40,018 nucleotides of DNA from Chiloscyllium plagiosum (lineage: Eukaryota), in contig NC_057726.1 in NCBI RefSeq assembly GCF_004010195.1, forward strand, positions 37,238,092 through 37,278,109, given 5' to 3'. Below the pieces are notes generated by a model that was given only the letters and a program-made list of their open reading frames with translations, had not been told where the DNA came from and made no database searches. The position numbers and the translations under genes are program-made. Positions 9,601 through 38,133 of this stretch are shown in pieces; the first letter of the stretch is position 1; every line of letters starts with the position of its first letter.

Positions 9601-12600
9601 CACACGAACTACATCTATGTGATGACACTGTATTTGGAACTGTGCACATGCACATTTCTAAATGAGCTCACATGTGTAGTTGCCCTCAGTTGCCAGTGTC
9701 AGCAAACATTGCCCTAAAGTTAATAACATTGAAAGTTTTGTACTTAATAAGATAGTATTCGTGACTTCAAGATGTTCCAAGCACTTTGCACCCAATAAAA
9801 TATGTTTCAAGTGTAGTCACTTGTGATGTGAAAATCTGCCAAACAACTTGAACACAGCAATAAGGTTACAGGCCAGATAATCTTTCTTAATGATGTAACT
9901 TGAGGGATAACTATTGACAAGATAGCTTATTTGAATATTAACATGAAATCTTCTAAATCTTCCTGAGAGAGTACACAGGCCTTAGTTTAATGCCGAATCC
10001 AAAAGATAGTGCACTATCTGCTATTACGGCAGAAAGTCAGCCTGAAGTATGTGCTCAAAGCTAATCTAGAATCGACTGACTCAGAGATGATAATGTTACA
10101 CAGCAATAGCTGACATCACAATGAGTGGCTTGCACCACTGTGGCACATAAAGGATCAGCCTCAAGACACACATTTTCAGAGTTTGCTCACAGTCACTTGA
10201 TAGTTATATACAACCGAAGTTGTTTATGGGACCTGCATGTAACTATGTTAGATCATTTTTCTCTAAACTATGGTAAATACCAGATTAATACAATATATGC
10301 AATCAAATATTTTCATTTTTTGTTACTGTTTAAGAAATTTCAATATCAAATGTCTGAATTGTAACAAAAGTAGATATTTTCGGTTTCTAGCTTCTGTGGA
10401 TTTTTAAAAATATGAATTTGTAATAAAGATTTTAAAATATTAGCCACAATATAAATGTATCAATTGCAGAACAATTCAATTTGAAAACAAAAAAGCAACC
10501 TTAATATTTAATGTATGCATATGTCAAGGTTGTTGACAGCATCATTTCAATGTCGAGAGTATGTTGCTGGAAAAGCACAGCAGGTCAGGCAGCATCCGAT
10601 GAGCAGGAGAACCAACATTTCAGGCAAGAGTTCTTCATCAGGAATTGAGGAGGTGAAGAGATAAATGAGAGGGAGAGGTAGATCTGGGGGGAAGGTAGCT
10701 GAGAGTGAAATAGATGGATGGAGGTGGGGGAGAAGATGATAGGTCAGAGAGGAGAGTGGAGTGGATAGGTGGGAAGGAAGATGGACAGGTCGTTAGGGCG
10801 GTGTCAAGTTGGAAGGTTGGAACTGGGATGAGGTGGGAGAAGGGTAAGTGAGGAAATTGGTGAAGTCCACATTGATGCCATGTGGTTGGAGGGTCCCAAA
10901 GTGGACACATTCTCCTAGCATCATTTAAATGCAATGCATGACACTTTAGTCAACTAATTTAATATTAAACATAAATCTACTAAAGTCTTATTGCTGTATC
11001 TTTAAAAGATAAAATGACCAAGTCACCAAAATTCTAGAGCATTCCCAATTCTTCGAGTTCATATATGAAGAACACATTTTAATACCTCAGTGTCTTGACT
11101 CTTGAGAAAACAGACTCGAGTCTTTGGAAACCCAAAGGTCCAGCTTTACATCCATCTAATTCTAGTGTTTCAATTGTTGTATGGTAAGACAGAAGGTTTG
11201 CAATTGCAGTGCAGTCAGTCACATTCAAAGAGATGTAAGAAAAGTTTACAGTATCACTAGTTTGGGAAGCAACTTGTTGTGTTAAATTTTCATTTGCTGC
11301 TTCATAGAGACAATGTGAGGCTGTAAGTTTTTGTCTTTTGTGTGCTGTGTACTTTACAATGTTTTCTGGAGTCAGCGTGTCTTCTTTAGGAACTTCAACT
11401 GCAGCAACATTTTTGATAGCATCAAATACTTCCCTATCTTTAACCTGATAATTAGGTACCAATTGCTTCACAAGTTTTCTGTTGCTGAGAGACACCAGGC
11501 CAGCAGTGAACCTCAGTACAATCTCAAACACACTGCTTTTTGAACTGAAGGCTTTATGAACATGATTTACTCCAGGTTCATTTGCAGAAATGCAATATAG
11601 TGCTGCAAAAAATTCTTGGTGTGTCAAGTGGAAAAATTGCCAAATGTGAGACTGCATCATCTTCAGGCTTTCTTTGGTGAGAATTTTTTTCCAGAAGGAA
11701 TTTTTGCCTTGAGTGATATTCTTTTCAATATCTTTTGTTGAGAATATTATTGTTTTATTGGTGACTCCATCCCATGCAAGTTGTGCTAATTTAATGATCT
11801 CATTTTTGTCTTCATCATCTTCTAAGCAGAAGGACTCAGGGTCTTCTTCCTCATCATTGTTACAGACCAATAAACACTTGGTAAATCTGAGGAACAAATC
11901 TGTGATTGTCCTGGGAAAGGAAGACAGCTGAGACCACTTGCCTTTACAGTGAAAGGACTTGTGGAGGTAGAAACACAGAATGTCACAAAATGCAGGAACA
12001 TAGCAAAGTCCAAATAAGGAATCAATGCTCTTCACCTTTTGAAAGACATGCTCAGCAGCTGTTTTATCCTTGAGACACTTCACAAAGTATGCAGCAATTT
12101 CATTTTTGGAAAATCCTAAAATTTCAGCACAACGATTAAAATATGCTTTGTTATCCAAATCAATTGTGGTTGGGCGGGATGTAATAAGGATGGTTGCATT
12201 GTGAACAAGGTCTCCCTTTATGATACTTGCAATCAAATGGTTCATGTGTTGAGCAATGGAGATGTGAACTTGTGAATAAATGCCAAAATCAAGAGAGGAT
12301 TTGAATTCATCCAATCCATCAAATAAAAACAGAATCCTACTGGGCCATTCTAATATCTTTGTGCATACTGCTCTCAGATGAGGGTAACTACGTATAATAA
12401 GCTCAGTTAGACTAATTTTCTCCTTGATTGTGTTCAACTCCCGAAAACTGAAATACAGCAGTATATTAAACCCAGAATAAAGTGGTCCACAGGCCCAACT
12501 ATGAGCGACTTTTTGCATCATAACACTTTTGCCTATTCCTGCCACTCCTTGCACTAGACAGACTCGTGGTGGTTTTTCCCCAGGTGCAGATGGTGAAAGG

Positions 12601-15600
12601 AGCTGTCTTAAATCAATACGTTCACATGCTGTATAATCCCTGTGTTGTAGGAGTTCATGCTCTGTTTTATTCCTTTCTCGAACATTAAGAATGACTAAAC
12701 TGGTGAAATGTTCTTGTAGCAAAGGTCTGGAGTTATCAAATGCAAAGTATGGTTTAATTCTCTCCATTTGTGCTTTTATTGTTCCTTTATGAATGGTCAC
12801 AACTTCAGAGATTTCTGTAATTACAAGAGAAAAGTAATGAGTCATGGTGAAACTTGCATTTTCTCCTATAATGGACAAAGCCCCAGCAAATCTGACAGTG
12901 TCACCATACTTAATATAGTACAAATATTGTACATTTACTTAATGAAAACAAATAAAGCAAACTTAATCTTTCTTGCTGCACAAGGTTGATTTATGTTGAA
13001 TTAAAGAGATTAGTATTTGTGCCTATATGACAACATCTGCTACAGGACTTTGCCCTACAAAAAAGGTTTATCTGAAAACAAAATAATTGGAACCTGAATA
13101 ATGGAGGCTTACTTGTGTATATAAAGGATTGTAAGGCATCAGATAAATTGTAGATCATTTTAGGAATTCAAATACGTCTTGTAGAAAGATAATAAGGTAC
13201 CCAATAAACTTGTTTAAACCGTAAAGTACTTCATTCTACAATGTAATAAACACAGTGTGCTATAAAAATGAACACTGGTGCATTCAGTATAAGAAGACAA
13301 GACACCATGGAATTGAAAGCTGTCCTTTGTTTAAGTAGCTGATTCTTTCTGATGTACCATGCAGAATAATAATGGCATGGCTTCCATCCAATCTAATCCA
13401 GGAATCCATGATGTTTGCAATGTAAATCAATTAGAACTTCGAAAAAAAAATCAAAGAGAATGAAATGTGCAGAATTTTTCAGTGTAAGTGAACTTGATAA
13501 AACCGGGCACTACACAAGTTAATGACAATCAGTAGAGTGGAAGCATGCTATTGTGGAGTAGATGGCCTGGATTAGATAGTGACCTGAATGTGAATGGGAT
13601 AGCTGATGAGGAACATGATGAAAAGACCAATTTAGGAGGAGTGCCTGTAAGTAACTCTGGCTGGAAACTGATGTTGGGAGTTTCCTACTATGATACCCAC
13701 TTCCAAAACTGGGATGAAAATTGCTCTCTTTAAGTGTGAAGACATCAAACCAAGCAACATCAATACAGATGTGACAATGGGTCCAAGTCTTTCATCAAAA
13801 TTAGTGAACAGAAACATTAGGATAATCTATATCAATACAGATTTATCTATAATGAGTTTAAATTATGTTCCCATCAATATTAAATAATTTCAAAATCAAT
13901 GGATCCAAGCTATTAACAATACTAGAATACTAAATGTGGAGATGTCATTTGTTACTAATACCCAAGAACTTATCTTTTACAAATCATGCCTACCTTCAGG
14001 GAAATCGGTTATTTGGATTTTTTCATTGGTTCCCTCAAATGAAACAATTGGTAAGTTTTCATGGAGAAGATCAATACTTGGCCTGTCAACTTTGTCAGTG
14101 TAGGATTCCAGTAGTGTTGTTATAAACTGTTTTAAACCAGGATAATAGTCTTCTGTGTCTTGCAGTACATTGAGAAAATTAGCACATGATTCCTGACCTC
14201 TGTGGCTTAGCATGTCGAGAAGAGTTCGCCCTTTATCAACGTCTGGTTTATCTTTTATTGCATTGTGGTCGTCTTCAGATATTATTTTCTTATTCACTAA
14301 AAGGTTTAAAAGTGGCAGTATATTTGGGCTGATGTAATTTACCACTGTTCGACGACCTTCTTCTATAGCATTAATTGCCCAGTCAGCACGCTTCAATTGT
14401 GATGGAAAATATCCAGGATCCTCACAAGCACCTGTTAAGAATGTTATAAAATCATTAAAAATCAAACTAAGCTAAATTTTAGAACTAATAGGACCATATT
14501 ACACAAAATTGACTGACTTATAGTTTTTTTTTCAATTTTGTAACCTACTGCATTAACTTGTCTGGCAATTTTAAATCATGGCTTGAAGTTCTAATTATTT
14601 CACAGATTAAGTAATGCAGATACAATATTTATTTCCCAAATAATCATACAAGGGTTGCTATTGTCTATTTTACCTATGTGTGTTTGACCTTTCAGTGAAC
14701 AGGTATTGGGGTCCCCTTAAATGTTTGAAGCTATTGCTGCTAAAAAGGAGCTACCTCAATCCAGGGAACGTTCTTCTTCCAGAGTAACTCTCAGATACCT
14801 CCAATACTGAGTAATGCAATGAATGTGCTAAAGGTTGCTCACAATTACATTATCTACTTCAGGAACTTGTACATATAAGTCGGGGATGTTTGCTGAGTTC
14901 TCTGGAACATAGTAGGTAAAAGTCATGGGAAATGGGGTAAATTATTAAAAATAGCTAGTTCTGCCTTTCCTCCAAGGACCCCACAGTATGTAAGTTGCTG
15001 GTATTTCAGGATCATAACTTGGAATGGAATATGAAATAATCTTTCTCCTCTCTCTCTTGCATAAGGTATTGACTCTTTGATCAAGTGTAGAACCATGGAT
15101 GTCTATTGGTTTCTGATACCGGATCCATTCTTTACAATTGAGCAGAGACTGATCTTGCACCATCTGACATTCACACTCGGTGAACGGCAAGGATTGTTGC
15201 AAACAATTCAGATGCTGAGGTTAATTTTGGTAGCTCTGTCATGGATAAGCTAATTTTACAAAGGGCTAAAATTTAATTTTAGAACCTCTTACTACTGAAG
15301 TAAACAAGTCAAGGGTGTGTTTTCTGATTTGTAAAGTTAGTTTCCAAAATGCTTAGAATACTTGGACAATATTGTAGAATTCTGTGCAGTGGAGCAGCAT
15401 TTCTGGTTAAGGCAGGGTACGCTCAATCTAAAATCCAGTGGAATTGGCTGCAGATAGAAGATGCTCCCTTTTTGCAGAGTGCCGCATGTTTGCAAACAAC
15501 AGAATAAGAAGATCAGATCTCAGAAATTCCATCACTTAAACAAGAGTTATGGTTGACTCATTTCAAAACAAAAGAAAAGTGATTGAATTACCTGCTTGAC

Positions 15601-18600: not shown

Positions 18601-21600
18601 CCAGACAAACCTTTACAATTCCCAGACTATTCTAATTCTGGCCTCCTGTGCATCTCCAACTTTAAGGGTTCCACCATTGGTGATCTGCTGCCTTAGTCCT
18701 AAAGCTCTGAAACTCTCTATCTTAACCTGCCTGCCTCTCGATTTCGTTCTCTCCTACCATACACAGCTTAATTCTTCACTCTGTGCCCAAGTTTTTGGTC
18801 AACTGTCCTAACATCTCCTACTATCTCAGAATCAAACTTCGTAATGCTCCTGTGAAGTGGCTTGGAAAATTTTATCATGTTAAATGTTTTACGTTAAGTG
18901 TCAGTTGTACCTGTTATTAAAATATTAGACAGAGGAATTAAGTTAAATATGTGAAGTCTTGTCTGCTAATATTACGCACAATAATATGAAGGCTATCATA
19001 TGCATAGCTATGTACTGTCAAAGAATTCCTATTTTGTTATTTAATCAATTTTGACACTGACTAATACAATTCTAATTTTATTATGCAGTAAAATAAATGT
19101 AACTCACCTTTGGTTTCCAAAGCAATAACTTTTGAAATACTGTGTTTCAGAGCATCATGCTGGACTTCAAAAGAATATATCAGCTTTCTTTTTGTAGCTT
19201 CTGTATTTCTGAAGGTGAGCTGAGATACTAAACTGTATGCTCCACTTCCTTTGTGATTTTCTAAAGACATGGCAATGTCATGTTCTCCTTCCGTGAAGTA
19301 CATTGTTTTGTCTTGTTCACTCTGATAATAATCCCCGATTTTTCTGTATTCCAATTGTTTTACAGATGATGAGGTGCTGTTCCATTTACTGATGAGAACT
19401 TTCTGGAAGTTACCCTCTTCCTCTCTGTACCAAGAGACTTTGACAGCTTTCGGCTTGAACCAGAGAACTGCACAAGCCAGAGAGACTGAATCATCTGTAT
19501 GGAAATAGTTTGGTTTGATGATGTCTGTCACTTTTGGAGCAACTGAAAAAAAGAACAAAGAGGAACAGAATCTCTTAAACAAACTGCCATTCTTGTAATG
19601 TGCTGCATTGATCATTTTCCTAGCTTTTGAACTTATTTTTATGCACCATTTTCTTTGGGTAGGTGCTCGAAGATATTCTTTGTAAGCAAATGCATTATAT
19701 TGTATCAATTGTATGATGTAAACCAATGTATTAGTTACATTTGTATTGTATTCCAACAAAAGCAGCCAGGTGGACCTCAGAATATGAGTTCCCTGATTGG
19801 GGCTGCTAATCTGGTCCAATCAGGGTGCCCTGGCTGACACTGAGAGCTGGCTCTGAGGGAGCTGGATCAATGTCAAGGGCTCTCCATGTGTAAATAAAGG
19901 GTGACTTGGTCACGGGAGACTGGCCTCTGTGGAGTTTGTTCAGTAATCACTTTTAAACACATAACTGTGTTATTGTGTTTTCCCCAGCAATGAATGTGAA
20001 CTGGTTGTGAAAGAGTTCTATTGGTGAAAGCTTGTCTCATCGTGGTGAAATTGGACAGCCATGAAAGAAAGAAGACAGTTTCTGGGCTAACCATGCTATT
20101 GGAATTAATACACAACATACTTGGAAATGTCAGGCCAGGTCCCTGAAATGGAGATTTGTCACAGATGCCTTGTTGATCTTGACAATGAACACTCAGACAG
20201 GTGCCAATATGTTTTTTTCACCCCAAGGTACAAGTTGATTAGGTTGCAGCTAGAGTGTTTTCTGCAATTCTGGAATCCACAATATAGGAGGGATGCTATT
20301 GCACTGGAAAGACTGCAGAGGAGATTTACCAGGATCTTGCTTGGGCTGGAGAATTCGAGTCATGAACGGTTATGAGATTGGCCGGGATTTTTTTTCTTTG
20401 CAGCAAAGGAGACTGGTGGTTGGTGGGGGTATGATTGAGATTATAGAAGTATGGAGTCATAGATGTGGTAGATCGAAAGGAACATTTACCCTTGATGCAA
20501 GAATCAATGACAGGTGGCATAGATTTATGGTATGGGGCAAGAGGTTTAAAGGAGAAGTGAGGACATTTTTTTCCACTCAGGGAGTGATGAGAATCTGCAA
20601 CTCACTTCCTGTAAGGGTAGAGGAGGCAGAAACCCTCACATCATTCGAGACATATTTAGATGTGCACTTGCAATGTGAAGAGAAAGTGAGGACTGCAGAT
20701 GCTGGAGATCAGAGCTGAAAATGTGTTGCTGGAAAAGCGCAGCAGGTCAGGCAGCATCCAGGGAACAGGAGAATCGACGTTTTGGGCATAAGCCCTTCTT
20801 CAGGAATGAGGAAAGTTCCTCATTCCTGAAGAAGGGCTTATGCCCGAAAGGTCGATTCTCCTGTTCCCTGGATGCTGCCTGACTTGCAATGTGAGGCATA
20901 GTAGACTATTGGCCAAGAGCTGGAAAATGGGATTAGGAAAGTTAGATACTCATTTTTGACCAGTGCAGACTCGATGGGCTAACGTGCCTTCTTCTGTGCT
21001 GTAGGCCTTTGACACTATGATGCTAATGTCACATTCATTGTTAACATAGTTCTGGAAGACAACCCGTACTGAGAGCAAGATATGATGACGTGGAGGTGGT
21101 CCCAGCACAGCCATGATAGGATTAACACTAGAATCAGAGTTGAGAGTGTGTTGCTGCAAAAGCACAGCTGGTCAGGCAGCATGCGAGGAGCAGGAAAATC
21201 AACGTTTTGGGCCGGTGCCCTTCATCAGGTCCAGCTCGAAACGTTGATTTTCCTGCTCCTCGGAGGCTGCCTGACCTGCAGTGCTATTTCAGCACCACAC
21301 TCTCAACTCTGATCTCCAGTATCTGCAGTCCTCACTGTCTCCTAACAGTAGAATCAGATAACCCAATTTAAGACTTTGCCTTATTTGCCATGGGGCAGGA
21401 TCAGAAGTGCATATAAAGACAGACCAAATAAATCAGCTTTGCTAGCCAAAAACTGGGTTCTTTGAAAGAGGAAGGGTAGACTGATCATCCATCAAAAAGA
21501 TATGCCAGGAGTTTCAAGGAGCTCTGACCACCTGAGATAAACCCTAGCTTACTAGTGCCTGGGTCATTAGGGGTATGTACAAATTCATATACTACATCTT

Positions 21601-24600
21601 ATAGATTAAATAAAGGCATTCTACACAAGTGGAACAGGATCTAATTTTCTATGCCATTTCAATGCCTACAGTGAAACCCACAAAAATGTGTCTTATGACT
21701 GGGTCCCTTTCCCTTATATCTTCAACTAATCTAAATGGTTAACAACTTTCAATCCCAATGGACAAAAATTGATTTATCTTCTGAAATTCAGGATTTAAGC
21801 AGTAAAAAAAGAAACCAAATTTCAAAGCAGGATTGAGAACCCAAAATGTGAATATTTTCCAGGCCTCATCTCAGTAATCCTCAGCTATTTTTAAAAATAA
21901 ATGCCTGAATTGGGCAGGAGATATTCTCAGTGTCCAATTGGCTGCAATGAAGATCTCTATGAGGTGGGAACGGTCAGCCTGATATCAGCAGCAAATGTTG
22001 ACAACAGCAATACTCAGGTCTGTCGCATTCTAAAGAGCAGGTAGCTCTTTAGAGGGTTAGCTTGCCTTAATAGAAGGAATGTAGACGTGCAGCCAAATGC
22101 AGATAATACCCATGCCACTGCCCCACATGCCCTGCACAAACACTTTTAAGTCAATGTAAGTACATTTTCAGGTCTCCCCACTATGAACTGACAGCTGGTT
22201 ATTACATGCATCAGATTGTTCAGGTTCACTGGACTTCCTTTTGAAAATGACAGTGCTATCCTCCCTGCCTCTAAAGGAGCTTAATGTTATTTGGAGATGA
22301 GATGCTTCCAGATTCTCTCTTCTCTGCTTTCACTCCTAAAAATAGCAACCTGTCCCTGAAGTGTCAGGATCCAGAGAGAATCCGTGAATGTGATTTTAAT
22401 ATCATTGCTACACAAGGTCCTGATCCCACTGGGAATTGAAAAGTGAGAAAGTGTCAGCATAAAAAAAACCCATCAGGAATGTATAGTTGAATGCTGTGGA
22501 TGATAAAAATAATTACAATCTATGGTACCAGAAACAGCAAGATATAGTACTATCTTTAAAAATGATTTATATTATAATATCTTCTACCTTACATCATTGA
22601 TAGAGCATCACTCTTACATGAACTGCTGAGGGGGCCAACACCTTTTAGGGAAACTAGAAATGGAAATGTGTTGCTGGAAAAGCGCAGCAGGTCAAATGCC
22701 CATTAAATTCAGTCTTGCCAAATTCACCCCATTCCCAAAATACCAAGTTCCAGAAAGTCTGATCATTTACCTTTTCCTTGATTGTTGCAAAAAATAAATG
22801 TCCAAAAACAAATGGCCATGGTGATCACAAAGGTTAGAAGAAAAGTGAACAATGTTCCTGATCTTATTCTTGGGTTGGATCCTAGAGAAATGCAAGACCA
22901 AAGACGTGTTAGTGTTGATTTAGCCAACACAGACAAACAGCAGTGAATAACTAGGATTCATCACAGGAAACAGAAAAGTTCTCACAACACAGTATAAGGC
23001 AGCATTACACCTGACGAATCGTAAACCTCCTTTATTGATAAATGAAGCAGTGGCCCCTCTTCTGTTTATAATCTCTGGTGAATAGCCCAAATATTTTGTA
23101 AGTCAAATGGCCTTACTATAGTCCATCTAATATATTAGATAAGCTTGAAATTTTTAAAATGTATTTCAGAGGACACCCATTAGTGGAATTCTTTCAGTAG
23201 AAATAGAAACGTGAAATGTGTGACAGTTCTGCATCTGCACAGCAATTTAGATTGTGATGTCAGTAAGAAAATAATTACTTATTGATTCAACATTCTACTC
23301 AGTCCCGCTCTGCACCCAAGATACACTACACCTAAAGTCTGTTTAGAAAATAAAATTTTTCATCTTTTTACCCTGAGGATCCAAAGCTGGCTTTATCAAA
23401 GTCTGCGTTTTACGGATATGAGGAGTGCAATTTGGTGATCATAATAAAAGCCATATGTTGATGAGTAGTACTATGACAATGAGATGGAAAAGAACTGCTT
23501 TGCTAGCGGTTAGAAAAAAAAAGTCATTTTTAACTGTTGGGCAACATAGATTAGATTAGATTACTTACAGTGTGGAAACAGGCCCTTCGGCCAAGAACTG
23601 CTTTGCTAGCGGTTAGAAAAAAAAAGTCATTTTTAACTGTTGGGCAACATAGTTAGCACTGCTGCCTCACAGTGCCAGAGACCCAGGCTTGATTCCAGCC
23701 TTGGGTGAGTGTCTGTGTGGGGTTGTACATTCTCCCTGTATCTGAGTGGGTTTCTGCTGTTTGCTCTGGTTCCCTTCCACAGATGTGCAGGTAAAATGGA
23801 CTGGTCATGCTAAATTGGCCTATTGTGTCGAGGGATGTGCAGGCTAAGTGGGTTAGCCATGGGAATTGCATGGTTACAGGACTAGGGTAGGCAGGTGGGT
23901 CTAGGGTGGGGTGTTCTGAATATCGGTGCAGGCATGATGGGCCAAATGGCCTCTTGCACAGGGTAGGGATTCTATGTCTCTGTATTTAAACATTTAGGCA
24001 TGCAACAGAAAGGGTTATTTTGGCTTGTATGTAAGATCCGCTACCAAACCCTGAAAAGGATTTGTAATAATAGAGGCTCCAAAGAGTAATTTTCCACTCT
24101 ACACTGATACCATTGAGGGAAAGCCAATTTCATGCAGACTTCATTGATAAATCCTCTGGAATACACACAAAAAACAACTGTGACTTGGGGTAAATAGCAA
24201 AAATGTTCATTTCCATATTTTGACCAAGGAACAAAAGAATCCACTTTAAAACTTCCACATAAATTAGATTGTTTACTAGACATAATGGAAGATTATTGCT
24301 TTGTCATCCTGTAATTTTCAAATGAATTTGTGTGAAAGTCTGGCAGTATTTCTATTCAACTATCCCTCTGAAATGTGAAAAACCTTCATAAATGCTCTGC
24401 AATTTAAAAGAACACGTAAGCAGAGAACAATCTGAATGATGAAACAAATCTGTGACAAAATTAAAATCTGGCAAAACTTTTTATAATGAATCAATATTTA
24501 TACTTGAAGGAACCAAATAATGTCTGTTACTTATAATGATCCATCTGTTGTATGGCTCTCTTATACAAATTCAAGCCAAGACCCCCAAAGTGGAAAAATA

Positions 24601-27600
24601 GAATTCATGTCATATTAGAATTGAGAAGTGTATCATGCTATTTCCTAGATATCATTCTCTTTTAACTACTTACCCTTGATTGTCAAACTAACAACTTTTT
24701 GTACAGGTATCTTTAAAGCTTCATGAATAACTTTGCAGACATAGGAAGCCCCATCATCTGTTTGAATGCCTTTGATGATAAGGAACGAAAGCAGATTAAA
24801 TGTCCCATCTTCATTTTGTTGAGGTGATCCTGTAACCGCTCTTGATGTAACATCAAGTTGGTTTTCACTGTCTTGTGAGCCACTTTTTAACCAAAAGATA
24901 GAATGATTTTTTGGATAAAAGTTTTTCATCTCACAAATGATTACTTTGTCTTCACCAGGTTCAATTACAATGTTTACAGTGTTCACTGAAACTGTAGGAG
25001 GTGCTACAAAGACACAAGGAAAAAGGATAAATATATTATTTTTATTAGCATTATTGGCATTACTTTACAATACATCATAACAATGTTAGCCAATGCAGCC
25101 CCTCAAACCTATTCTCCTATTTAATTAGTTCAGTGTTGGTCTGTGATTTAACTCCCAATTTATTCTTTGTCTCATATACCTCAATAATATTGCTCAATGA
25201 AAGTCCAGCTATCTCAGATTTAAAATTATTATTTTACTGAGTGCAAAAGTGAGCTAAAAATTCAATCATAATTTGCATGAAGTAGGATTTCCTAATTGGA
25301 CTTCTGAACAATCTGGCTCTGATTTTGGATAATACTCCCTCCCCCATCAGTGGAAATGACCTCTCCCTAGTGGTCATATCAATGCCCATGACATCTTGAA
25401 TTTTTGATGTTTGTATAATCTGTCTTTTGTAATTTATTGCTTGCAGCTCAGATCTTCTGACAAATACACTCAATACTCTCCCAAGACATCTGGTTTTCAC
25501 TTACAGCAGATACTAATGATTATGGATCACTTTTGGGTTTAATTAAACTGTAGATTCAACACCCATTCTTTACATATTTCAGTATTTAATAGCAAGTGGA
25601 GAAGAAATTTTGTTTAATTTGTTCAACACTTTTGATGGAAGTTATTGACCTCCAGGTGAACTCCACCGATACAGTCAAACTTGTTATTTCCAACATTTTC
25701 TATTTCTACTTTAAACTTCTAGCAGCTTCAGTACTTTCTTTTGGTTTAGTAAAAAGCATTCTCAGGTTGACAATTTTGAACTTGGATGGTCAAATGTCAG
25801 GCTTCAGTATTAAAGCTGTGTTCTGGAAATGGTGACAAAGCCAAGAATATTGTATTCTGGAAAACAGGTCATTTTGACTTATTGATTTATGTCCACGAGG
25901 TATGAAACTGCACTGTTCAGTTATTTGAAGAAAGGATCTACAATTGGCCATCAGGGATAGTAAATGCTTCACCCCAATAGTTCAGTTTGCTGAATGTAAA
26001 CAAAATCAATCCAACTCACATTATTGCTTCTGTTTTTTTTCTAACTTGCAAGACAGATTAGAGTAATTTTTCAGATATTGCACCGAAGCTAAATAAAATA
26101 TCTACTCTATCTCTTAAATAAGAAACACAATGGTCTGTATTTTGTGGCATCAGCAAAGCACCAGCATTCACCTTTGACTTTCATGAAAGTTATGCACAAA
26201 AATCTTCCAATTTCTGTGGCAATTTCCTTTTCCAAGGTCAGTTTTATTGTTGGTACCAAGCCAAAGTGTCTCAAAGCATCAAGCAACAGTGGATGTGATC
26301 GATTTGGATTTCCAGAAGGCCTTTGACAAGGTGCTGCATAGGAGGCTGCTAAATAAGGTAAGGACCAAAGGTGTTGGAGACAAGGTCCTGGCATGGGCAG
26401 AGGATTAGCTGACTGGCAAAAAGTAGAGTAGAGATAAAAGGGTCTTTTCTAGCAGGGCAGGCAGTGATTAGTAGAGTTCTGCAGAGGTCAATGTTGGTAT
26501 CACAACCATTCATGTTATACATTAATGATCTGGTTGAAGAAACTGAGGGCACTGTTGCTTAGTTTGCAAATGACACAAAGATAGTTGGAGGGACAGGCAG
26601 TGTTGAGGAAGCAGGGAGGCTTCCGAAAGAGTTGAGGAGAAAGTGACGACTGCAGATGCTGGAGATCAGAGCTGAAAATGTGTTGCTGGAAAAGCGCAGC
26701 AGGTCAGGCAGCATCTAAGGAACAGGAGAATCGACGTTTCGGGCATAAGCCCTTCTTCAGGAATGAGGAAAGTGTGCCCAGCAGGCTAAGATAAAAGGTA
26801 GGAAGGAGGGACTTAGGGAGGGGCGTTGGAAATGCGATAGGTGGAAGGAGGTCAAGGTGAGGGTGATAGGCCGGAGTGGGGTGGGGGCGGAGACCGCCCC
26901 TCCAACCGCCACCAGGGCAGAACCCCACTGGTCCTCACCTACCACCCATCAACCTCCATATACAGCGTATCATCCTCCGTCATTTCCGCCACCTCCAAAC
27001 GGACCCCACCACCAGGGATATATTTCCCTCCCCTCCCCTATCAGCGTTCTGAAAAGACCACTCCCTCCGTGACTCCCTCGTCAGGTCCACACCCCCCACC
27101 AACCCAACCTCCACTCCCGGCACCTTCCCCTGCAACCGCAAGAAATGCAAAACTTGCGCCCACACCTCCCCCCTTACTTCCCTCCAAGGCCCCAAGGGAT
27201 ACTTCCATATCCGCCACAAATTCACCTGCACCTCCACACACATTATCTATTGCATCCGCTGCACCCGATGTGGCCTCCTCTATATTGGGGAGACAGGCCG
27301 CCTACTTGTCTCTCTGTATGTCAATGCTCCTAAGGATTCTGTCCTTTATTGCATAATTCACAGCTGAATTTGATCTTCCAAAATGCATCAACTTGCATTT
27401 GTTTGGATTAAACTCCATCTGCCATTTCTCTGCCCAAATCTGCAATCTATCTATATCCCACTGTATCCTTTGACAATCTTCTTCATGGTCTGCAACTCTA
27501 CCAATTTTGGTATCAATAAACAATATAGGCAATAGGTGCAGGAGTAGGCTATTTGGTCCTTTGAGCCAACACCACCATTCATTATGATCATGGCTGATCA

Positions 27601-33600: not shown

Positions 33601-36600
33601 NNNNNNNNNNNNNNNNNNNNNNNNNNNNNNNNNNNNNNNNNNNNNNNNNNNNNNNNNNNNNNNNNNNNNNNNNNNNNNNNNNNNNNNNNTTCTCTTGAAT
33701 CATCCTCGCAATCGTTTCTTCTACGTTTCTAGGACTATTGGGAGGCCTGTAAAAGACTCCTAACAGGGTGAGCTCACCTTTCCTATTCCTAACCTCAGCC
33801 CATACTACCTCAGATGGCGAGTCTTCATCCATCGTCCTTTCCACCTCTGTAATACTATCTTTGACAAGCAATGCCACACCTCCCCCTCTTTTACCCTCAC
33901 CTCTGACCCTACTAAAACATTTAAACGCTGGGACCTGCAACAGCCAATCCTGTCCCTGTTCTAGCCATGTCTCCGTAATAGCCACAACATCGAAGTCCCA
34001 GGTACCAACCCACGCTGCAAGTTCACCTACCTTATTTCGTATACTTCTTGCATTGAAGTATACACACTTCAAGCCACTTTCCTGTTTACAGGCACCCTCC
34101 TTTGAAATTGATGCCATGTTCCTAACCTCCCTACACTCCAGGTCCTGCACCCTAAAGCTACAGTCTGGATTCCCATGCCCCTGCAGAGTTAGTTTAAACC
34201 CCCCCAAGAGCACTAGCAAACCTCCCACCAAGGATACTGGTGCCCCTCAGGTTCAGGTGCAGACCATCCTGTTTATAGAGGTCCCACCTTCCCCAGAAAG
34301 AACCCCAGTTATCCAGTTAGTACAGTGATTTTCTTCCCTTAATAGTAGAAACAGCCTTGTGACTTACCAGTTTATGCCAAAGTTGACATTTTCCAATTTG
34401 AACTCAGTTTAATTTAGAATAGTTTTTCATAATTGAAAGAGCAATTTGTAGGAATACAACAACAATTCAGGAAGTACTGTAATGTGTTATTTCTATTTCT
34501 TTGTGCCACCTTTATTTGGAGTTTCTGAGCATGATTTCTCGATTAGGTTTGAACCATAAGCAGTCATGGATCGCACTCAAAATCCTTAAGGACTTTCAGG
34601 AGCTGTCAGGCAGAGGTGACTTTTAAACCTCTTAATGTAAGTTAGATTATATTCAAACCAGATTAGATCAAATTCAAACCCTGAGGTGACTGCTACTAAC
34701 TTAATGCTGTCAAACCTCTCTTTCATACTCTTTGATTTCTTTACAGTTATTCACCCTGAGATACTAAAATTTAACTTTTCTCATTCTGTCAATAGGCTGG
34801 TTTTTGAAGCTCTTTCATCTTCAGACAGTTTTTCTGTTTGATCTTCGCAGCTACCTATTTTTACACATCGTAGATAATTTATCAGTCTGCCAGCCAGAAT
34901 GGATCACTTTTGCCATTCAGCTTTATTTTGTTTCATATAAATTCCCTCCTCTATTAATTTATTTGGGCAGGAGTCTCCCTGTACATTACAAGTTTACTTT
35001 CCATAAACCAAACTTGTTCACTCACACATATAAGTATAATTTTTTCAGGCTCACTGCACAAAAGTGTGAAACCTGTTCCACTCCAGTCGCTCAGTAATTT
35101 TTAATTCTTTACCATCTTTTCCATAACATAAAGTTTTGACTGGCAATTCCTCACCAGCACATTGTAGTTAAGTCTAGTTTCCAACCTGAATTGTTCCCAC
35201 ATTAGAGCTTTACAAGAATGACCCTGGAAATGGAGGGCTTGTCATATGAGGAGCAGTTGAGGACTGTACTCGATGGAGTTTAGAAAGATAAGAGGGCTCT
35301 CGTTAACATTTACAGGATAGAGTGGACACGGAGAAGATGTTTCCACTAGTAAGAGAGACAAGGACCAGAGGGCCCAGACTCAGTGAAGGGACAACCCTTT
35401 AGAAGTGAGATGAGGACGAAATGCTGCAGCCAGAGGTTGGTGAATCTGCAGCACTCATTGCTGCAGAGGGCTTTGGCAACCAAGTATTTAAGGCAAAGAT
35501 AGATAGGTTCTTGATTAATGAGGGGATCAAAGATTATGGGGAGAAGATAGGAGAATGGGATTGAGAAACACATCAGCGATGATTGAATGGCAGTGCAGAC
35601 TCAGTGGGCTAAATGGCCTATTTTTCATATCTTACGGCCTTACAGAAACTCACCTGGTGGATATTTTGGCATCCAGAAATGTACCTTCTCCACTGAGGTA
35701 ACTTGAAGTGTTTTCAATTTGAGTTTGGAAGTGCTTTTCTTTCATCACTTCTTACTGACTGTTACATTAAAAACTGTGAATGGATCTCAACAAAATCATG
35801 GTCAAGATCTTTTAGTTTGATCAGGTGATGTCAAATTATTTGTCACTTTACATCAACCTGCTTCCAACTGACAGTATTCACATCTGTATAATTTTCTCAT
35901 CCTACGTTTTAAACTTCTCACCACTATGAATGCTTATCCACACCATTAATGTTTCCAGAGAAGACAGTAAGTAAAGGAAAACCTCCAGAGGTCCTAAAGG
36001 TTTACACTTTAGGCATTATTTTTCACTCACCTGTTACCGACAGAGTAACTTTCCCTGTGGCTTTGTCAGAAAATACTGTCACTGTGCAGGAGTATGACCC
36101 AATGTCGTAAATCGTAACATTTTTTAGGAGTAAAGAAGCATTTGCTTTGCTTATTTCATTTATAGAGAGACTTGATCCTGGTCTATAGCTTTCATATTCT
36201 CCAAAGTCAAACAAGCAAACAGTTTTTTCCTCATTTCCCACTCTATGGTTCCACTCAATGACAATGTATCTCAAATCAACTGCAACAGCGCGTGAAAACG
36301 TGCAGCCAAGGAGGACATCTTCCCCAAAGGTGGCACTGACAGCTGGTGTGAGCATCACCTCCAGTGAAACTGCAATAAAAATAATAGACATCAAAAGAGA
36401 GTAGGGTCGATACATAGTTTATTAATCATTAATTTTATTTGTCAGCATTCCAAGAAGGAACAAATGGCTAGCAGTTTCAGGACCCAGCAGCTGGGAAACT
36501 CATTGGGTCATGTTTCATTCTTATAGTTGCTACACTTCGGAGAAACACTTGCTTGGCTATAAGGCTTATTATTACACAGAGACCTGGGAAAAAGGCTGCA

Positions 36601-38133
36601 TTAATACAAGTCCGATGTCTCCCCCCTCCGCCCCATCCACACCTCCAGCCAGATGAGCAGAGGCATTAAGTCGTGATGTGGGTGGGAGAGAAGGAAGGGG
36701 AGGGGAGAGGCGGGCAAGTTTGGCTGCCATTGGGTTGAGGGGGCCATGCTGTCAGCTGCCATTGCAAAATCAGACAGAAGCTTGTTTCGGGTTGAGCTGG
36801 ACACATACAATTTGCCTGTTTTGGCTTGAACTTACACTTTAAAAAAATCTGTCTCTTTGGTGAAAGTCACTTGCTACATTAGAAAGTGGCAAAATGACAC
36901 TGCACCTCAAACAAATATATTAAATATGCTCTCCACAGATGATGCCAGACCTGCTGAGTTTTTACAGCAATTTCTGTTTTTGTTTCTGATTTACACCATC
37001 CATAGCTCTTTCGATTTTTATTTAGTATTAAATCTGCTATTTTGCAGGGCTCTTCATCTCGGTGAATTTGCAGCGAGCTGTATGGACAAGACAGGTCAAA
37101 TTGTGACTTTTCTTCACTGTAACAATTCTGTGATTACAGGTGACTTTAATGCATTCAGTTCTCAATATCCGTGAGGGATTGGGGCATGAACTTCCCATGT
37201 ATAACAATAAGCACGATACCACTCCTATGTACCTCAAAGGACCGCAATGTTTACTGAGGCAAACTGGGTGAGACAATGGGATAAAAAGAGGTCTGGGGTA
37301 GACTTCACAAGTTCGAGGGTAGCAGATAGCAAGGCGTGAGCACACCACAGGAAGTTTTGAAGGGCTCAAATACATATTTGAATACTGCAGTGACTCTTTT
37401 GGAGGTTAATAGATAATTACTTAAATTTACTGAGTGCTGTCGCTTCAGGATAATATTTCTTGTCAGATTCATAACAGAGAGAGTTTGAAGCTTGCGCAAG
37501 AAAGAAACCAATTCAAGGCAGACATGTCTGATGGACGAAGGGAAAAACCAAAACTGACAAATTACAATATAGTAGCCAGAACTCTTTCACTTGTTTGCAA
37601 GTCACTCTGTAGGTTAGCCTTGGCTAGGGTGATGTGCTTCCTCTCCAAAAGGTGAATTTTTAACCAAACAACAGTAGTTACAGAGTCACTGTTTAGCTAG
37701 CTGTTATACTGAATTCAAACTTCACTATCTGCTATAGTAATATCTAAAGCAATGTCCACATCTCAGGATGCTGTTCTGGATTACTTGTCCAAAGACACTA
37801 AGACTATGCCACTGTTTCCTTATTTTCTCTCCCTCCTGAAGAAAAATAACTTCAGAAACCACTGTAGTCTTTAGATATTTAATTGTTTTGAGTAATGTGC
37901 AACATACCAAATATCATATTTATTGCTTCACTAAAAGAACTTTCATCAAAATATATATTTCCCCTTTCTAAGCCTGAAATGAAGGCCTACACTTCACATC
38001 ACCCCTTTCATATCCGAAAAGCTACAAAGAAATGACTTCCTTGTTTATAGTAACAGAGAGATAAAGCAATTCTCCACTTACCCGCTAAGGGGACAAAACA
38101 AAATATAATCAGTTCTACTAAAAAGCAATTCAT
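564..38133 (-). CDS. Spliced gene, 3'-incomplete: type I membrane protein SP-IgV-IgC1-TM-(cytoplasmic IgC1-like)-CARD-NACHT-LRR. Exons: 38133-38082, 36369-36031, 25003-24674, 22881-22771, 19542-19108, 14431-13994, 12814-11086, 7768-7682, 3280-3197, 3064-2981, 1677-1594, 647-564
   Basis: Manual splicing: every intron is GT..AG and phases match (1,1,1,1,1,1,2,2,2,2,2), with no stop in 3857 nt. The individual exons are well supported. Their joining into one transcript, especially 19108 to 14431, is inference. Confidence 0.8.
1594..1677 (-). CDS. Exon 11: LRR (GLQFNKIGDEGAMYMAEAMKKNRSLVELR)
   Basis: 84 nt, phase 2-2, TTTCAG/GTAAGT; not in the ORF track. Confidence 0.93.
2981..3064 (-). CDS. Exon 10: LRR (GLRANSVRAKGARSIAEALEMNTTLRVFG)
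   Basis: 84 nt, phase 2-2, CACTAG/GTATTG. Confidence 0.92.
3197..3280 (-). CDS. Exon 9: LRR (RLKHNSIQEKGAAQIADALKTNSSLKTLG)
   Basis: 84 nt, phase 2-2, CACAG/GTATGT; NLRC3/NOD-type 28-aa LRR exon. Confidence 0.93.
3732..7083 (-). mobile_element. Long 5'-truncated CR1-clade LINE (ORF1 SGNH-esterase part, ORF2 APE endonuclease + RT), frameshifted
   Basis: ORF1-like VCYFPGARIKDV...VIVHIGTNNV; endonuclease YFNARGL...VAITETWL; RT YLDFSKAFDK, GVPQGSVLGPLLF, KFADDTK, LVRPLLECCMQFWSP. Short-repeat tail (catagtcatag) near 3740. Confidence 0.93.
7682..7768 (-). CDS. Exon 8: LRR (SLEGNMLEDEGAEIIANALRSKTCRIEILR)
   Basis: 87 nt, phase 2-2, CACAG/GTAAAT; ribonuclease-inhibitor-type LRR of NLRs. Confidence 0.92.
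7890..8960. repeat. Old degenerate interspersed repeat (LINE/SINE-like)
   Basis: Resembles common elasmobranch retroelement-derived sequence (recalled similarity only); no intact motif; boundaries approximate. Confidence 0.3.
10553..10916 (-). mobile_element. Penelope-like element 3' fragment/pLTR with 15-bp flanking duplication
   Basis: Shares the GTTGCTGGAAAAGCACAGCAGGTCAGGCAGCATCC terminus with other copies. Minus strand encodes the ORF end GTLQPHGINVDFTNF. Flanks AGCATCATTT[C/A]AATG at 10538-10552 and 10917-10931. Confidence 0.75.
11086..12814 (-). CDS. Exon 7: NACHT NTPase + HD1/WHD/HD2 + first LRR-like units (NOD1/NLRC3-like)
   Basis: TTACAG acceptor, AG|GTATTA donor, 1729 nt, phase 1-2. 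Walker A GVAGIGKS (12525-12548), FSFRELN, Walker B ILFLFDGLDE, sensor ILITSRP, EILGFS, LCYVP, FFHLTHQEFFAA, LRFTAGL, HCLYE. Confidence 0.96.
13994..14431 (-). CDS. Exon 6: CARD (death-fold) domain plus linker
   Basis: TTAACAG acceptor, GAAG|GTAGGC donor, 438 nt, phase 1-1. RRTVVNYI...LLNLLVNKKIISEDDHNAI...KGRTLLDMLSHRGQESCANFLNVL matches the CARD pattern of NOD1/NLRC-type proteins. Confidence 0.88.
16260..17430 (+). mobile_element. Degenerate CR1-like LINE 3' fragments interrupted by a SINE
   Basis: ERVFPLVGESLTRGHNLRV...MRRNFFS...LWDSL is the CR1 ORF2 C-terminus; boundaries approximate. Confidence 0.8.
16395..16670 (-). mobile_element. HE1/V-SINE-like SINE (partial)
   Basis: Reverse complement resembles the copy at 23642-23980 (TGTATGGAGTTTGCACATTCTCCC, GTGCAGGTTAGGTG core), with a CR1-like tail. 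Confidence 0.75.
18300..18910 (+). mobile_element. Degenerate L2-clade LINE 3' fragment
   Basis: Plus strand reads AAETVNHAFVTSSPDLSKTLL, a decayed form of the L2 'HAFVTSRLDYxNxLL' motif. Confidence 0.7.
19108..19542 (-). CDS. Exon 5: atypical C1-like Ig domain, predicted cytoplasmic, with a long internal insertion and F-strand Cys replaced by Phe
   Basis: TTTTTTTCAG acceptor, AAG|GTGAGT donor, 435 nt, phase 1-1. VAPKV...LACAVLWFKPKAVKVSW...GAYSLVSQLTF...IYSFEVQHDAL. Confidence 0.88.
19770..19942 (+). repeat. Possible solo-LTR-like remnant
   Basis: CCCTGATTGG/CCAATCAGGG short inverted CCAAT pair followed by AATAAA; termini not established. Confidence 0.3.
20220..21010 (+). mobile_element. 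Degenerate CR1-like LINE 3' end, host to a nested Penelope-derived palindrome
   Basis: YKLIRLQLECFLQFWNPQYRRDAIALERLQRRFTRIL; RTFFSTQGVMRICNSLP. Confidence 0.85.
20679..20883. mobile_element. Palindromic Penelope-pLTR-derived insertion
   Basis: Inverted arms about 68 bp centred on GAGGAA-AG-TTCCTC near 20815; ACTTGCAATGTGA duplicated at 20666-20678 and 20882-20894. Confidence 0.8.
21133..21343. mobile_element. Older palindromic Penelope-pLTR-derived insertion
   Basis: Imperfect inverted arms; TAACA[C/G]TAGAATCAGA duplicated at 21123-21138 and 21343-21358. Confidence 0.75.
22662..22694. repeat. About 33-bp Penelope-pLTR terminus fragment
   Basis: AAATGTGTTGCTGGAAAAGCGCAGCAGGTCA is identical to part of the copies near 20719-20749 and 26676-26706. 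Confidence 0.7.
22771..22881 (-). CDS. Exon 4: transmembrane exon GSNPRIRSGT-LFTFLLTFVITMAICFWTFIFC-NNQGK
   Basis: Acceptor TTTCTCTAG, donor AAG|GTAAAT, 111 nt, phase 1-1, open in the required frame. Contains 22 uncharged hydrophobic residues. Not in the ORF track. Confidence 0.88.
23490..23652. repeat. 60-bp perfect direct duplication flanking a 43-bp retroelement tail
   Basis: 23490-23549 equals 23593-23652; the insert is ATTAGATTAGATTACTTACAGTGTGGAAACAGGCCCTTCGGCC. Confidence 0.9.
23642..23980 (+). mobile_element. HE1/V-SINE-like tRNA-derived SINE
   Basis: tRNA-like head (GTTAGCACTGCTGCCTCACAG...GCTTGATTCC), V-domain-like core, and CR1-like tail (GATGGGCCAAATGGCCTC...GGATTCTATG). Confidence 0.8.
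24674..25003 (-). CDS. Exon 3: Ig C1-set domain
   Basis: TTTGTAG acceptor, GTAAGT donor, 330 nt, phase 1-1. APPTVSV...ICEMKNFYPKNHSIFW...NEDGTFNLLSFL...YVCKVIHEAL has the C1 hallmarks CxxxxFYP and YxCxVxH. Confidence 0.93.
26240..26630 (+). mobile_element. CR1-like RT fragment
   Basis: Reads DVIDLDFQKAFDKVLHRRLLNK...YINDL...FANDTK. Confidence 0.85.
26632..27306. mobile_element. Penelope-like element (GIY-YIG) fragment with internal inversion
   Basis: About 26632-26890 is the pLTR/3' end in minus orientation. About 26893-27306 on the plus strand encodes RTPLVLTYHP and PGTFPCNRKKCKTC...IIYCIRCTRCGLLYIGETGRLL (Cys linker + GIY-YIG). Confidence 0.88.
27307..29470 (-). mobile_element. CR1-like LINE ORF2 fragments (at least two pieces), degenerate
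   Basis: WAEKWQMEFNPNKC; VSLTSVVGKMLESII, YLDFQKTFDKVPH, LVRLHLEYCVQFWSP. Confidence 0.9.
29555..30160 (+). mobile_element. Degenerate CR1-like LINE 3' end
   Basis: TTCTTTAGCCAGAGGGTGGTGAATCAGTGGAAT (FFSQRVVNQWN) and a CR1 3' tail. Confidence 0.8.
30223..30480. repeat. Older Penelope-like terminal fragment (related copy in opposite orientation at about 36928-36995)
   Basis: GATGCTGGAGATCTGAAACAAAAACAG...CAGCAGGTCTGGCAGCATCTGTGG resembles the pLTR copies. Confidence 0.5.
31035..31312 (-). mobile_element. Short CR1-like 3' end with short-repeat tail
   Basis: TRGHSFKLRGGRYRTDARGRFFTQRVVSSWNALP; CATAGAA repeats at 31040-31065. Confidence 0.88.
32925..33689. other. Assembly gap (765 N) in the IgV-IgC1 intron
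   Basis: Run of N. Confidence 1.
33690..34315 (-). mobile_element. CR1-like LINE ORF1 end/ORF2 endonuclease start, truncated by the gap
   Basis: LKCVYFNARSIRNKVGEL...VAITETWL...GGGVALLVK...GVFYRPPN. Confidence 0.92.
35205..35640 (+). mobile_element. Degenerate CR1-like LINE 3' end
   Basis: Similar to 29700-30160. Confidence 0.75.
36031..36369 (-). CDS. Exon 2: Ig V-set domain (B7/NCR3LG1-like)
   Basis: TTGCAG acceptor, GTGAGT donor, 339 nt, phase 1-1. LGCTF...IEWNH...NASLLLKNVTIYDIGSYSCTV has the canonical B-strand Cys, C-strand Trp and DxGxYxC. Sequons NAS and NVT. Confidence 0.93.
38082..38133 (-). CDS. Exon 1: signal peptide MNCFLVELIIFCFVPLA
   Basis: ATG at 38133 (A at -3), 17 codons + 1 nt, hydrophobic core, donor G|GTAAGT. 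This is the typical phase-1 leader exon of Ig-superfamily genes. Confidence 0.85.

Follow-up and report, generated by a model that had tools for sequence, protein, structure and literature searches.

A C1-type immunoglobulin domain that lies behind the membrane segment of a Chiloscyllium plagiosum receptor gene (hereafter C1'; exon at 19108..19542 of the 40,018-nucleotide stretch of DNA analysed here, the window) is best interpreted as a domain inherited from a B7-H6-like protein family, in which it is the first cytosolic C1, and kept in an elasmobranch B7H6-NLR fusion. Judged from sequence comparison, C1' would be an inherited spacer, folded and located in the cytosol, with a membrane-sorting signal in its inserted loop, a reading to which a probability of roughly 0.55 is assigned. 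The sequence of C1', its splicing, its conservation and its membership of the family are shown by the data. C1-set domains are normally extracellular or luminal and disulfide-bonded, and vertebrate NLRs are soluble proteins; the gene appears to break both of these textbook rules.

Gene architecture and splicing

The window holds this gene only. It lies on the minus strand in the order leader-V-C1-TM-C1'-CARD-NACHT-LRR, with the following exons:

38082..38133, minus strand: leader exon (coding part), predicted signal peptide, corresponding to aa 1-17 of the C. plagiosum model P0001 and ending in a GT donor
36031..36369, minus strand: IgV exon, B7-H6-like (Pfam V-set, 1.1e-09)
24674..25003, minus strand: extracellular IgC1 exon (exon 3), 110 codons, both Cys present (Pfam C1-set, 1.2e-11)
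22771..22881, minus strand: TM exon, 37 codons, with a Thr/Cys stripe (T253, T257, T261, C265, T268), spliced in contig X5 record 22
19108..19542, minus strand: exon of the post-TM C1-like Ig domain (C1'), 145 codons, 435 nt, AG/GT bounds, phase 1-1
13994..14431, minus strand: CARD exon, 146 codons, phase 1-1 (Pfam CARD, 1.6e-11)
11086..12814, minus strand: NACHT-HD1-WH-HD2 exon (Pfam NACHT, 2.2e-35), with Walker A, Walker B, sensor-1 Arg and WH His intact
about 7770-7681, 3279-3196, 3063-2980, 1676-1593 and 646-563, minus strand: five LRR exons placed by exact-match mapping of P0001, borders approximate

Translation of seven exons was checked and agrees throughout with residues 1-1144 of P0001, and the mapping of this model did not find the last exon of the gene within the window. 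Spliced contigs from 4 of 24 listed runs, covering three studies, were compared and judged to be RNA-derived because they skip the introns exactly. One of them (X5 record 22) spans C1, TM, C1', CARD and NACHT in one piece, and 492 further letters at its C1 end fit V, leader and UTR by arithmetic alone. The C1'-CARD joint was seen in all three studies (including X1 record 5 and X2 record 9) and the CARD-NACHT joint in two (including X3 record 16). At two positions the window departs from the contigs: Trp267 (position 22804) is Gly in the contigs of 2 runs and in close relatives, and Pro679 (position 12485) is Thr in those of 4 runs and mostly Thr in close relatives. These letters are either rare alleles or assembly errors.

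The same architecture was found in 14 records from 12 shark and ray species, with a hydrophobic N-terminus in 12 of the 14. It is shared without architectural difference by a nurse shark orthologue already deposited in GenBank under the name B7H6 (QTT61908.1; 1318 aa, 88% identical), which has the same domains and the same YSFEVQH motif in C1'. An annotation that merges two neighbouring genes is ruled out by the single contig running from C1 to NACHT together with this 1318-aa record. A C1 match is absent from the 106 next-closest NLRs (best about 31% identity, chimaera records included) and the fusion therefore looks elasmobranch-specific, among the best 120 of 476 matches.

The NLR half contains a NACHT with Walker A and B, helical domains, LRRs and an N-terminal death fold, as expected of an NLR; the 'NLRC3-like' label carried by the gene is an automatic annotation. 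The nearest PDB entry for the NACHT is NLRP3 (2e-41), followed at 2e-28 by 5irm, which we take to be rabbit NOD2, and the CARD is nearest to ICEBERG and NOD1. The order CARD-NACHT-HD-LRR and the intact nucleotide motifs are shared with NOD1 and NLRC4. While these proteins and the NLRP-like NACHTs are soluble, in the shark gene a TM exon is part of the same spliced contig. All 12 species compared retain Walker A, Walker B, the sensor-1 Arg and the winged-helix His, and from the intact motifs alone we infer ATP-driven oligomerisation and CARD signalling of the shark receptor.

Several annotated models deviate from this scheme. Isoforms of sawshark and electric ray (P0008, P0014) leave out exactly the CARD exon, in frame, and going by the gene models alone these could possibly be non-signalling forms. 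Two C. plagiosum isoforms (P0246, P0248) are missing the leader and the greater part of V, and their topology would differ if they are real. In the Mustelus model P0005 the first part of the C1' exon is repeated, adding about 34 residues, which is either a partial duplication or an annotation artefact. Within the introns, a run of N at about 32922-33698 marks an assembly gap between V and C1, and open frames at 3809-4951, 27908-29363 and 32903-34246 resemble LINE reverse-transcriptase and endonuclease fragments.

The C1-like domain behind the membrane segment

Four features within the C1' exon bear on its fold:

19472..19474, minus strand: B-strand Cys301 (TGT), now partnerless, invariant in 11 of 11 aligned rows
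19430..19432, minus strand: C-strand Trp315, from the exon translation
19283..19378, minus strand: C'-D insert, aa 333-364, the least conserved part of C1' (57%)
19169..19171, minus strand: Phe402 (TTT) at the F-strand Cys position, in YSFEVQH (translation, contigs, orthologues)

The original prediction, made from the letters of the window, described a C1-type domain in which the F-strand Cys is replaced by Phe and whose exon has 145 codons against 110 for exon 3, and translation, Pfam and a structural model confirm this. The claimed insertion of about 35 residues was likewise recovered: the F-strand position lies 101 residues behind the B-strand Cys in C1' and 66 behind it in exon 3, a difference of 35. 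Pfam C1-set scores 28 bits on C1' (cut-off 21), over residues 15-44 only, and the C1 signature (Cys-x4-F-x-P and the C-strand Trp) is present. The B-F disulfide of the C1-set is lacking, with all 14 records carrying Phe in place of the F-strand Cys.

As had been suggested, the domain was modelled and searched by structure. AlphaFold, run on 11 orthologues, returned an Ig sandwich with a mean pLDDT of 65 (the other four models reached 35-59) and with residues 58-75 at low confidence. Foldseek and VIA searches with this model retrieved Ig domains at Z 10-12, among them the C domain of B7-H6 (Z 11.1, rmsd 2.1 over 97 residues). By rmsd the C domains are closer (about 2.1-2.5), while TCR V domains are equal in Z because the insert was modelled with extra strands.

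Conservation of the Cys loss was also checked, as proposed. Phe at the F-strand position and Cys on the B strand occur in all 14 orthologue records (12 species), and Phe was then found in nurse shark and Chiloscyllium punctatum as well, giving 14 species in total. A sequencing error at the TTT codon, on which the claimed loss could have foundered, is thereby ruled out, as it is by the contigs (X2 record 9 shows 0 other letters across the exon, and X1 record 5 shows one, at 19451).

Each of the 14 records has a single segment of TM grade, located before C1'. Behind C1' no second segment of that grade was found in these records, the only peaks being weak ones (KD 1.6-1.7) within the NACHT region. 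The cytoplasmic placement of C1' thus holds as a prediction, and an orthologue with both the Cys and a TM after the domain, which would have told against it, occurs in 0 of the 14 records. A cleaved leader followed by one stop-transfer helix would put V and C1 outside and C1', CARD, NACHT and LRR inside. The helix itself carries T257, T261, C265 and T268 in 12 of 12 species and T253 in 11 of 12, at a spacing of 4-4-4-3 that places them on one face. This face is a candidate helix-helix interface, and a comparable pattern was seen in only 1 of 54 non-fused relatives.

Dimerisation had been named as one role for C1' itself. C1-set domains commonly pair via the ABED sheet, and the E-strand motif YSL(I/V)SQL hardly varies, which would suit CH3-like pairing that pre-assembles receptor dimers under the membrane. 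This is held to be improbable: the motif is ordinary Ig core, and the polar face of the TM helix, with four of its residues conserved in every species, offers an alternative dimer interface. A reading of YSL(I/V) as an ITIM is ruled out, since it forms the E strand of the model and lacks the -2 residue of what we take to be the ITIM consensus.

The V-C1-TM-(C1)n family and the origin of C1'

A profile of the shark C1' was compared with 1.84 billion proteins and matched 98. The 99 proteins examined comprise 97 of the profile matches together with P0015 and P0001. One TM with C1-like domains behind it was found in 64, and 6 have all their domains before the TM; 29 with no or several TM calls were left out. 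The 27 members whose names were looked up come from chimaera, sharks, skate, ray, bichir, reedfish, coelacanth, lungfish, amphibians, reptiles and a teleost. The earlier guess of NCR3LG1-like relatives was right, and the profile search revealed a V-C1-TM-(C1)n family. Its members (P0017-P0113) have up to about 14 post-TM C1-like domains and are nearly all annotated as 'uncharacterized', and one snake record is automatically named NCR3LG1. These counts suggest that cytosolic C1 arrays are ancient in jawed vertebrates.

Based on this comparison, the family resembles the shark gene in the type of its ectodomain, in the position of the TM and in the first domain behind the TM, which has a long insert and has often lost the F-strand Cys. 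It differs from the fusion in its tails, which are further C1 arrays with a NACHT motif in 0 of the 99 proteins, and many members have a Thr-Pro FG loop and a full dileucine motif. A span of at least 85 residues is shown by 39 of the 56 first post-TM domains and by none of the 78 domains before the TM; C1', at 101, falls near the median of the first post-TM class (96). With profiles of the two classes, the shark C1' scores best as a first post-TM domain in 11 of 12 species, the matches having been chosen with the shark profile, and the shark extracellular C1 scores best as a pre-TM domain in 12 of 12. An origin of C1' by duplication of the gene's own extracellular C1 is disfavoured by these class profiles, and a shark-specific insertion is ruled out, as the insert is a family trait. 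Standing directly behind the single TM of a V-C1 protein, C1' fits the first post-TM domain of the family, and the family counts taken together with the class profiles make its position, insert and Cys loss family traits at the level of sequence. In a quick unrooted tree of 60 rows (midpoint-rooted), the fusions sit on a long branch outside the chondrichthyan paralogues, without a clear sister. An ancestral V-C1-TM-(C1)n gene would have kept its first cytosolic C1 exon and exchanged the remainder for phase-1 exons encoding CARD and NACHT-LRR, prior to the divergence of sharks and rays.

The Cys loss had also been taken as independent support for the topology. Among the pre-TM domains 75 of 78 have the complete pair; among the first post-TM domains 11 of 56 do, and among the later ones 141 of 259. 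In a paired comparison within 54 relatives the pair is lost only behind the TM in 43, kept on both sides in 10 and lost in the reverse sense in 1. These counts are biased in that the proteins were found with a Cys-less shark profile and are related, not independent, so that a Fisher p value for them should not be taken at face value, and a few of the pre-TM rows may be V domains. The claim stands as a family-wide trend (43 of 54 against 1 of 54 reversed) and fails for a single domain: 152 of 315 post-TM domains have both Cys, and one lost Cys is therefore not diagnostic. The loss is a trend and not a proof of topology. In the reducing cytosol the disulfide would be dispensable, and the core would be kept by a buried hydrophobic residue, which is Phe in C1' and Leu, Val or Ile in relatives.

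Glycosylation sequons point in the same direction as the preferred reading, towards which their density (1.15 vs 0.58 per 100 aa in the family comparison) was counted. No sequon column in C1' reaches 8 of 12 species, and N94 and N101 in the V domain are conserved in 12 of 12. The NACHT/LRR part has conserved NxS/T as well, in 9 columns at 8 or more of 12, presumably as part of the LRR consensus, and sequons are therefore weaker as a topology marker. A dileucine motif in the insert supports the family topology better than the Cys loss does. Acidic dileucine motifs bind AP adaptors and work only in the cytosol. Of 50 first post-TM domains, 27 have the pattern [DE]xxxL[LIM] in their insert (mean 4.9 and maximum 12 in shuffled sequences), and the pattern shows no excess in later (7 of 259) or pre-TM domains (1 of 78).

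In the fusion itself this motif is reduced. The strict form occurs in 0 of 12 shark and ray orthologues and looser forms (ExxxML or ExxxIL) in 4 of 12, so that the sorting role may have lapsed. At the offset of the family's dileucine motif, the shark insert has an acidic EQDK(T/I)(M/I/L) element, and it also contains a conserved Y(F)Q(S/N)E, with the Tyr in an acidic context in 11 of 12. The acidic loop would then steer trafficking more weakly than the full motif does in relatives. Neither the sorting-signal character of the insert nor the existing B7H6 deposit had featured in the original prediction.

The origin of C1' also bears on whether it is an integrated decoy, in other words bait offered to a protease, ligase or effector by which a pathogen attacks the tails of B7-H6-family proteins, with modification of the bait tripping the NLR. 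The parent family has related cytosolic domains that are possible pathogen targets, the loop is exposed and more variable (57%), and human herpesviruses downregulate B7-H6 according to passages of PMC6514059. Such a role is very unlikely nonetheless. C1' belongs natively to the receptor half, next to the membrane, and was not inserted into an NLR, and the orthologues look one-to-one, with one architecture in 12 species and without the domain turnover typical of decoys. Of the three roles first put forward (spacer, dimeriser, decoy), the spacer fares best, and the decoy loses ground, since the parent family already had this domain, insert included, at the same position.

Proposed role and comparison with other receptors

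Conservation within the gene is compatible with a spacer. Identity is 64% for C1' as against 77% for V, 75% for C1, 73% for CARD, 78% for NACHT and 86% for LRR, and C1' as the least conserved folded domain is what would be expected of a spacer. An alternative, considered unlikely, is a regulatory or binding module that docks on the CARD or NACHT and keeps the NLR off, or that recruits a cytosolic partner (the cytoskeleton, or a kinase via the Tyr), and is freed on ligand binding. It gains from the 31 of 144 C1' positions that are invariant over 12 species, from the Tyr of the insert with its acidic context, from the retention of C1' in the annotated isoforms that lack the CARD (P0008, P0014), and from an invertebrate parallel: the intracellular Ig domain of a sea cucumber NLR binds fidgetin and actin, according to parts of PMC13133943. 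On the other hand, many of the invariant residues are Ig core, no other folded domain is less conserved, and C1' is older than the fusion.

The same low identity, along with the degenerate sorting motif, could be read to mean that C1' is simply a leftover exon of the donor gene, carried in frame without a role of its own. This has very little probability, as C1' is full length, is 54% identical between sharks and rays and has its core Phe fixed in all 14 species; moreover, loss of its phase 1-1 exon would leave the reading frame intact, yet C1' is retained in 13 of 13 isoform and orthologue records compared.

As an inherited spacer with a sorting loop, C1' would hold the CARD about one Ig length off the membrane, an Ig domain being about 4 nm long. 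Once the ectodomain is bound by a surface partner, of the NKp30 family or another, the chains would cluster, aided by the Thr/Cys face of the helix, and clustering would lead to ATP-dependent NACHT oligomers and CARD signalling inside the ligand-displaying cell. The part played by C1' itself is probably modest, being that of spacer and trafficking element.

The ectodomain is that of a B7-H6 relative. V and C1 together have human B7-H6 as their best PDB match (E 5e-25, for the best single-stretch match), and human B7-H6 (NCR3LG1) shares with the shark protein the V-C ectodomain, the type I topology and, in equivalent positions, Phe82, Gly83 and Lys130. According to passages of PMC3135353, Thr127 and Pro128 of human B7-H6 provide 44% of the NKp30 contacts. 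This hot spot is Phe-Ser in the C. plagiosum protein, and the FG loop of the orthologues likewise lacks Thr-Pro, with Phe-Ser or Leu-Ser in 12 of 13 and Ser-Pro in sawshark. The extracellular partner of the shark receptor is thus uncertain and could be an NKp30-family or another surface protein. Many non-fused relatives keep the Thr-Pro loop, and these may be functional NKp30 ligands of fishes and amphibians.

The tail of human B7-H6, described as Gag-like in parts of PMC2715080, has no C1', CARD or NACHT, unlike that of the shark gene. This suggests that the tails of B7-H6-like proteins were swapped repeatedly, with C1 arrays, an NLR and the human Gag as outcomes, and it would allow reverse signalling through B7-H6 to be tested in a protein whose signalling machinery is obvious. 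Perhaps, though this is a tentative and on balance doubtful extension, jawed vertebrates have an overlooked B7-H6-like family with cytosolic, often disulfide-free C1 arrays and a dileucine loop, one member of which was rewired in sharks and rays into a membrane CARD-NACHT-LRR, such that engagement by an NK or T cell receptor would directly switch on an inflammasome- or NOD-like platform within the cell that is touched. If true, an NK ligand would double as a vertebrate transmembrane NLR.

A literature search returned no description of a shark Ig-TM-NLR or of cytosolic C1 arrays, the B7H6 evolution papers likeliest to describe the gene lying outside its reach. The main-text parts available of a whale shark NLR survey (PMC8455134) mention no Ig-TM NLR, and there is nothing on a shark Ig-TM NLR in the available parts of PMC10751288, PMC12227049, PMC11599192, PMC12436146 and PMC6514059. 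What is known already is the nurse shark deposit and the published Ig-TM-NACHT receptors of echinoderms. Passages of PMC8699970 and PMC13133943 describe the sea cucumber proteins AjNLRC4 and AjNLR-new as Ig-TM-NACHT receptors, the latter with an intracellular Ig domain. They resemble the shark gene, as far as these passages go, in being membrane proteins with Ig and NACHT, and differ from it in having two TMs each and, for AjNLRC4, in the lack of CARD and LRR. No sequence match to the sea cucumber receptors was found among the matches of the orthologue search, and the likeness is therefore probably convergent. The top Atlas look-alikes of the gene are echinoderm clusters that combine V-set and NACHT. 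Among the NACHT matches, the next-best (P0120-P0123; from skate, catshark, frog and sawfish) are 1900-2250 aa long and possibly contain tandem NLR units.
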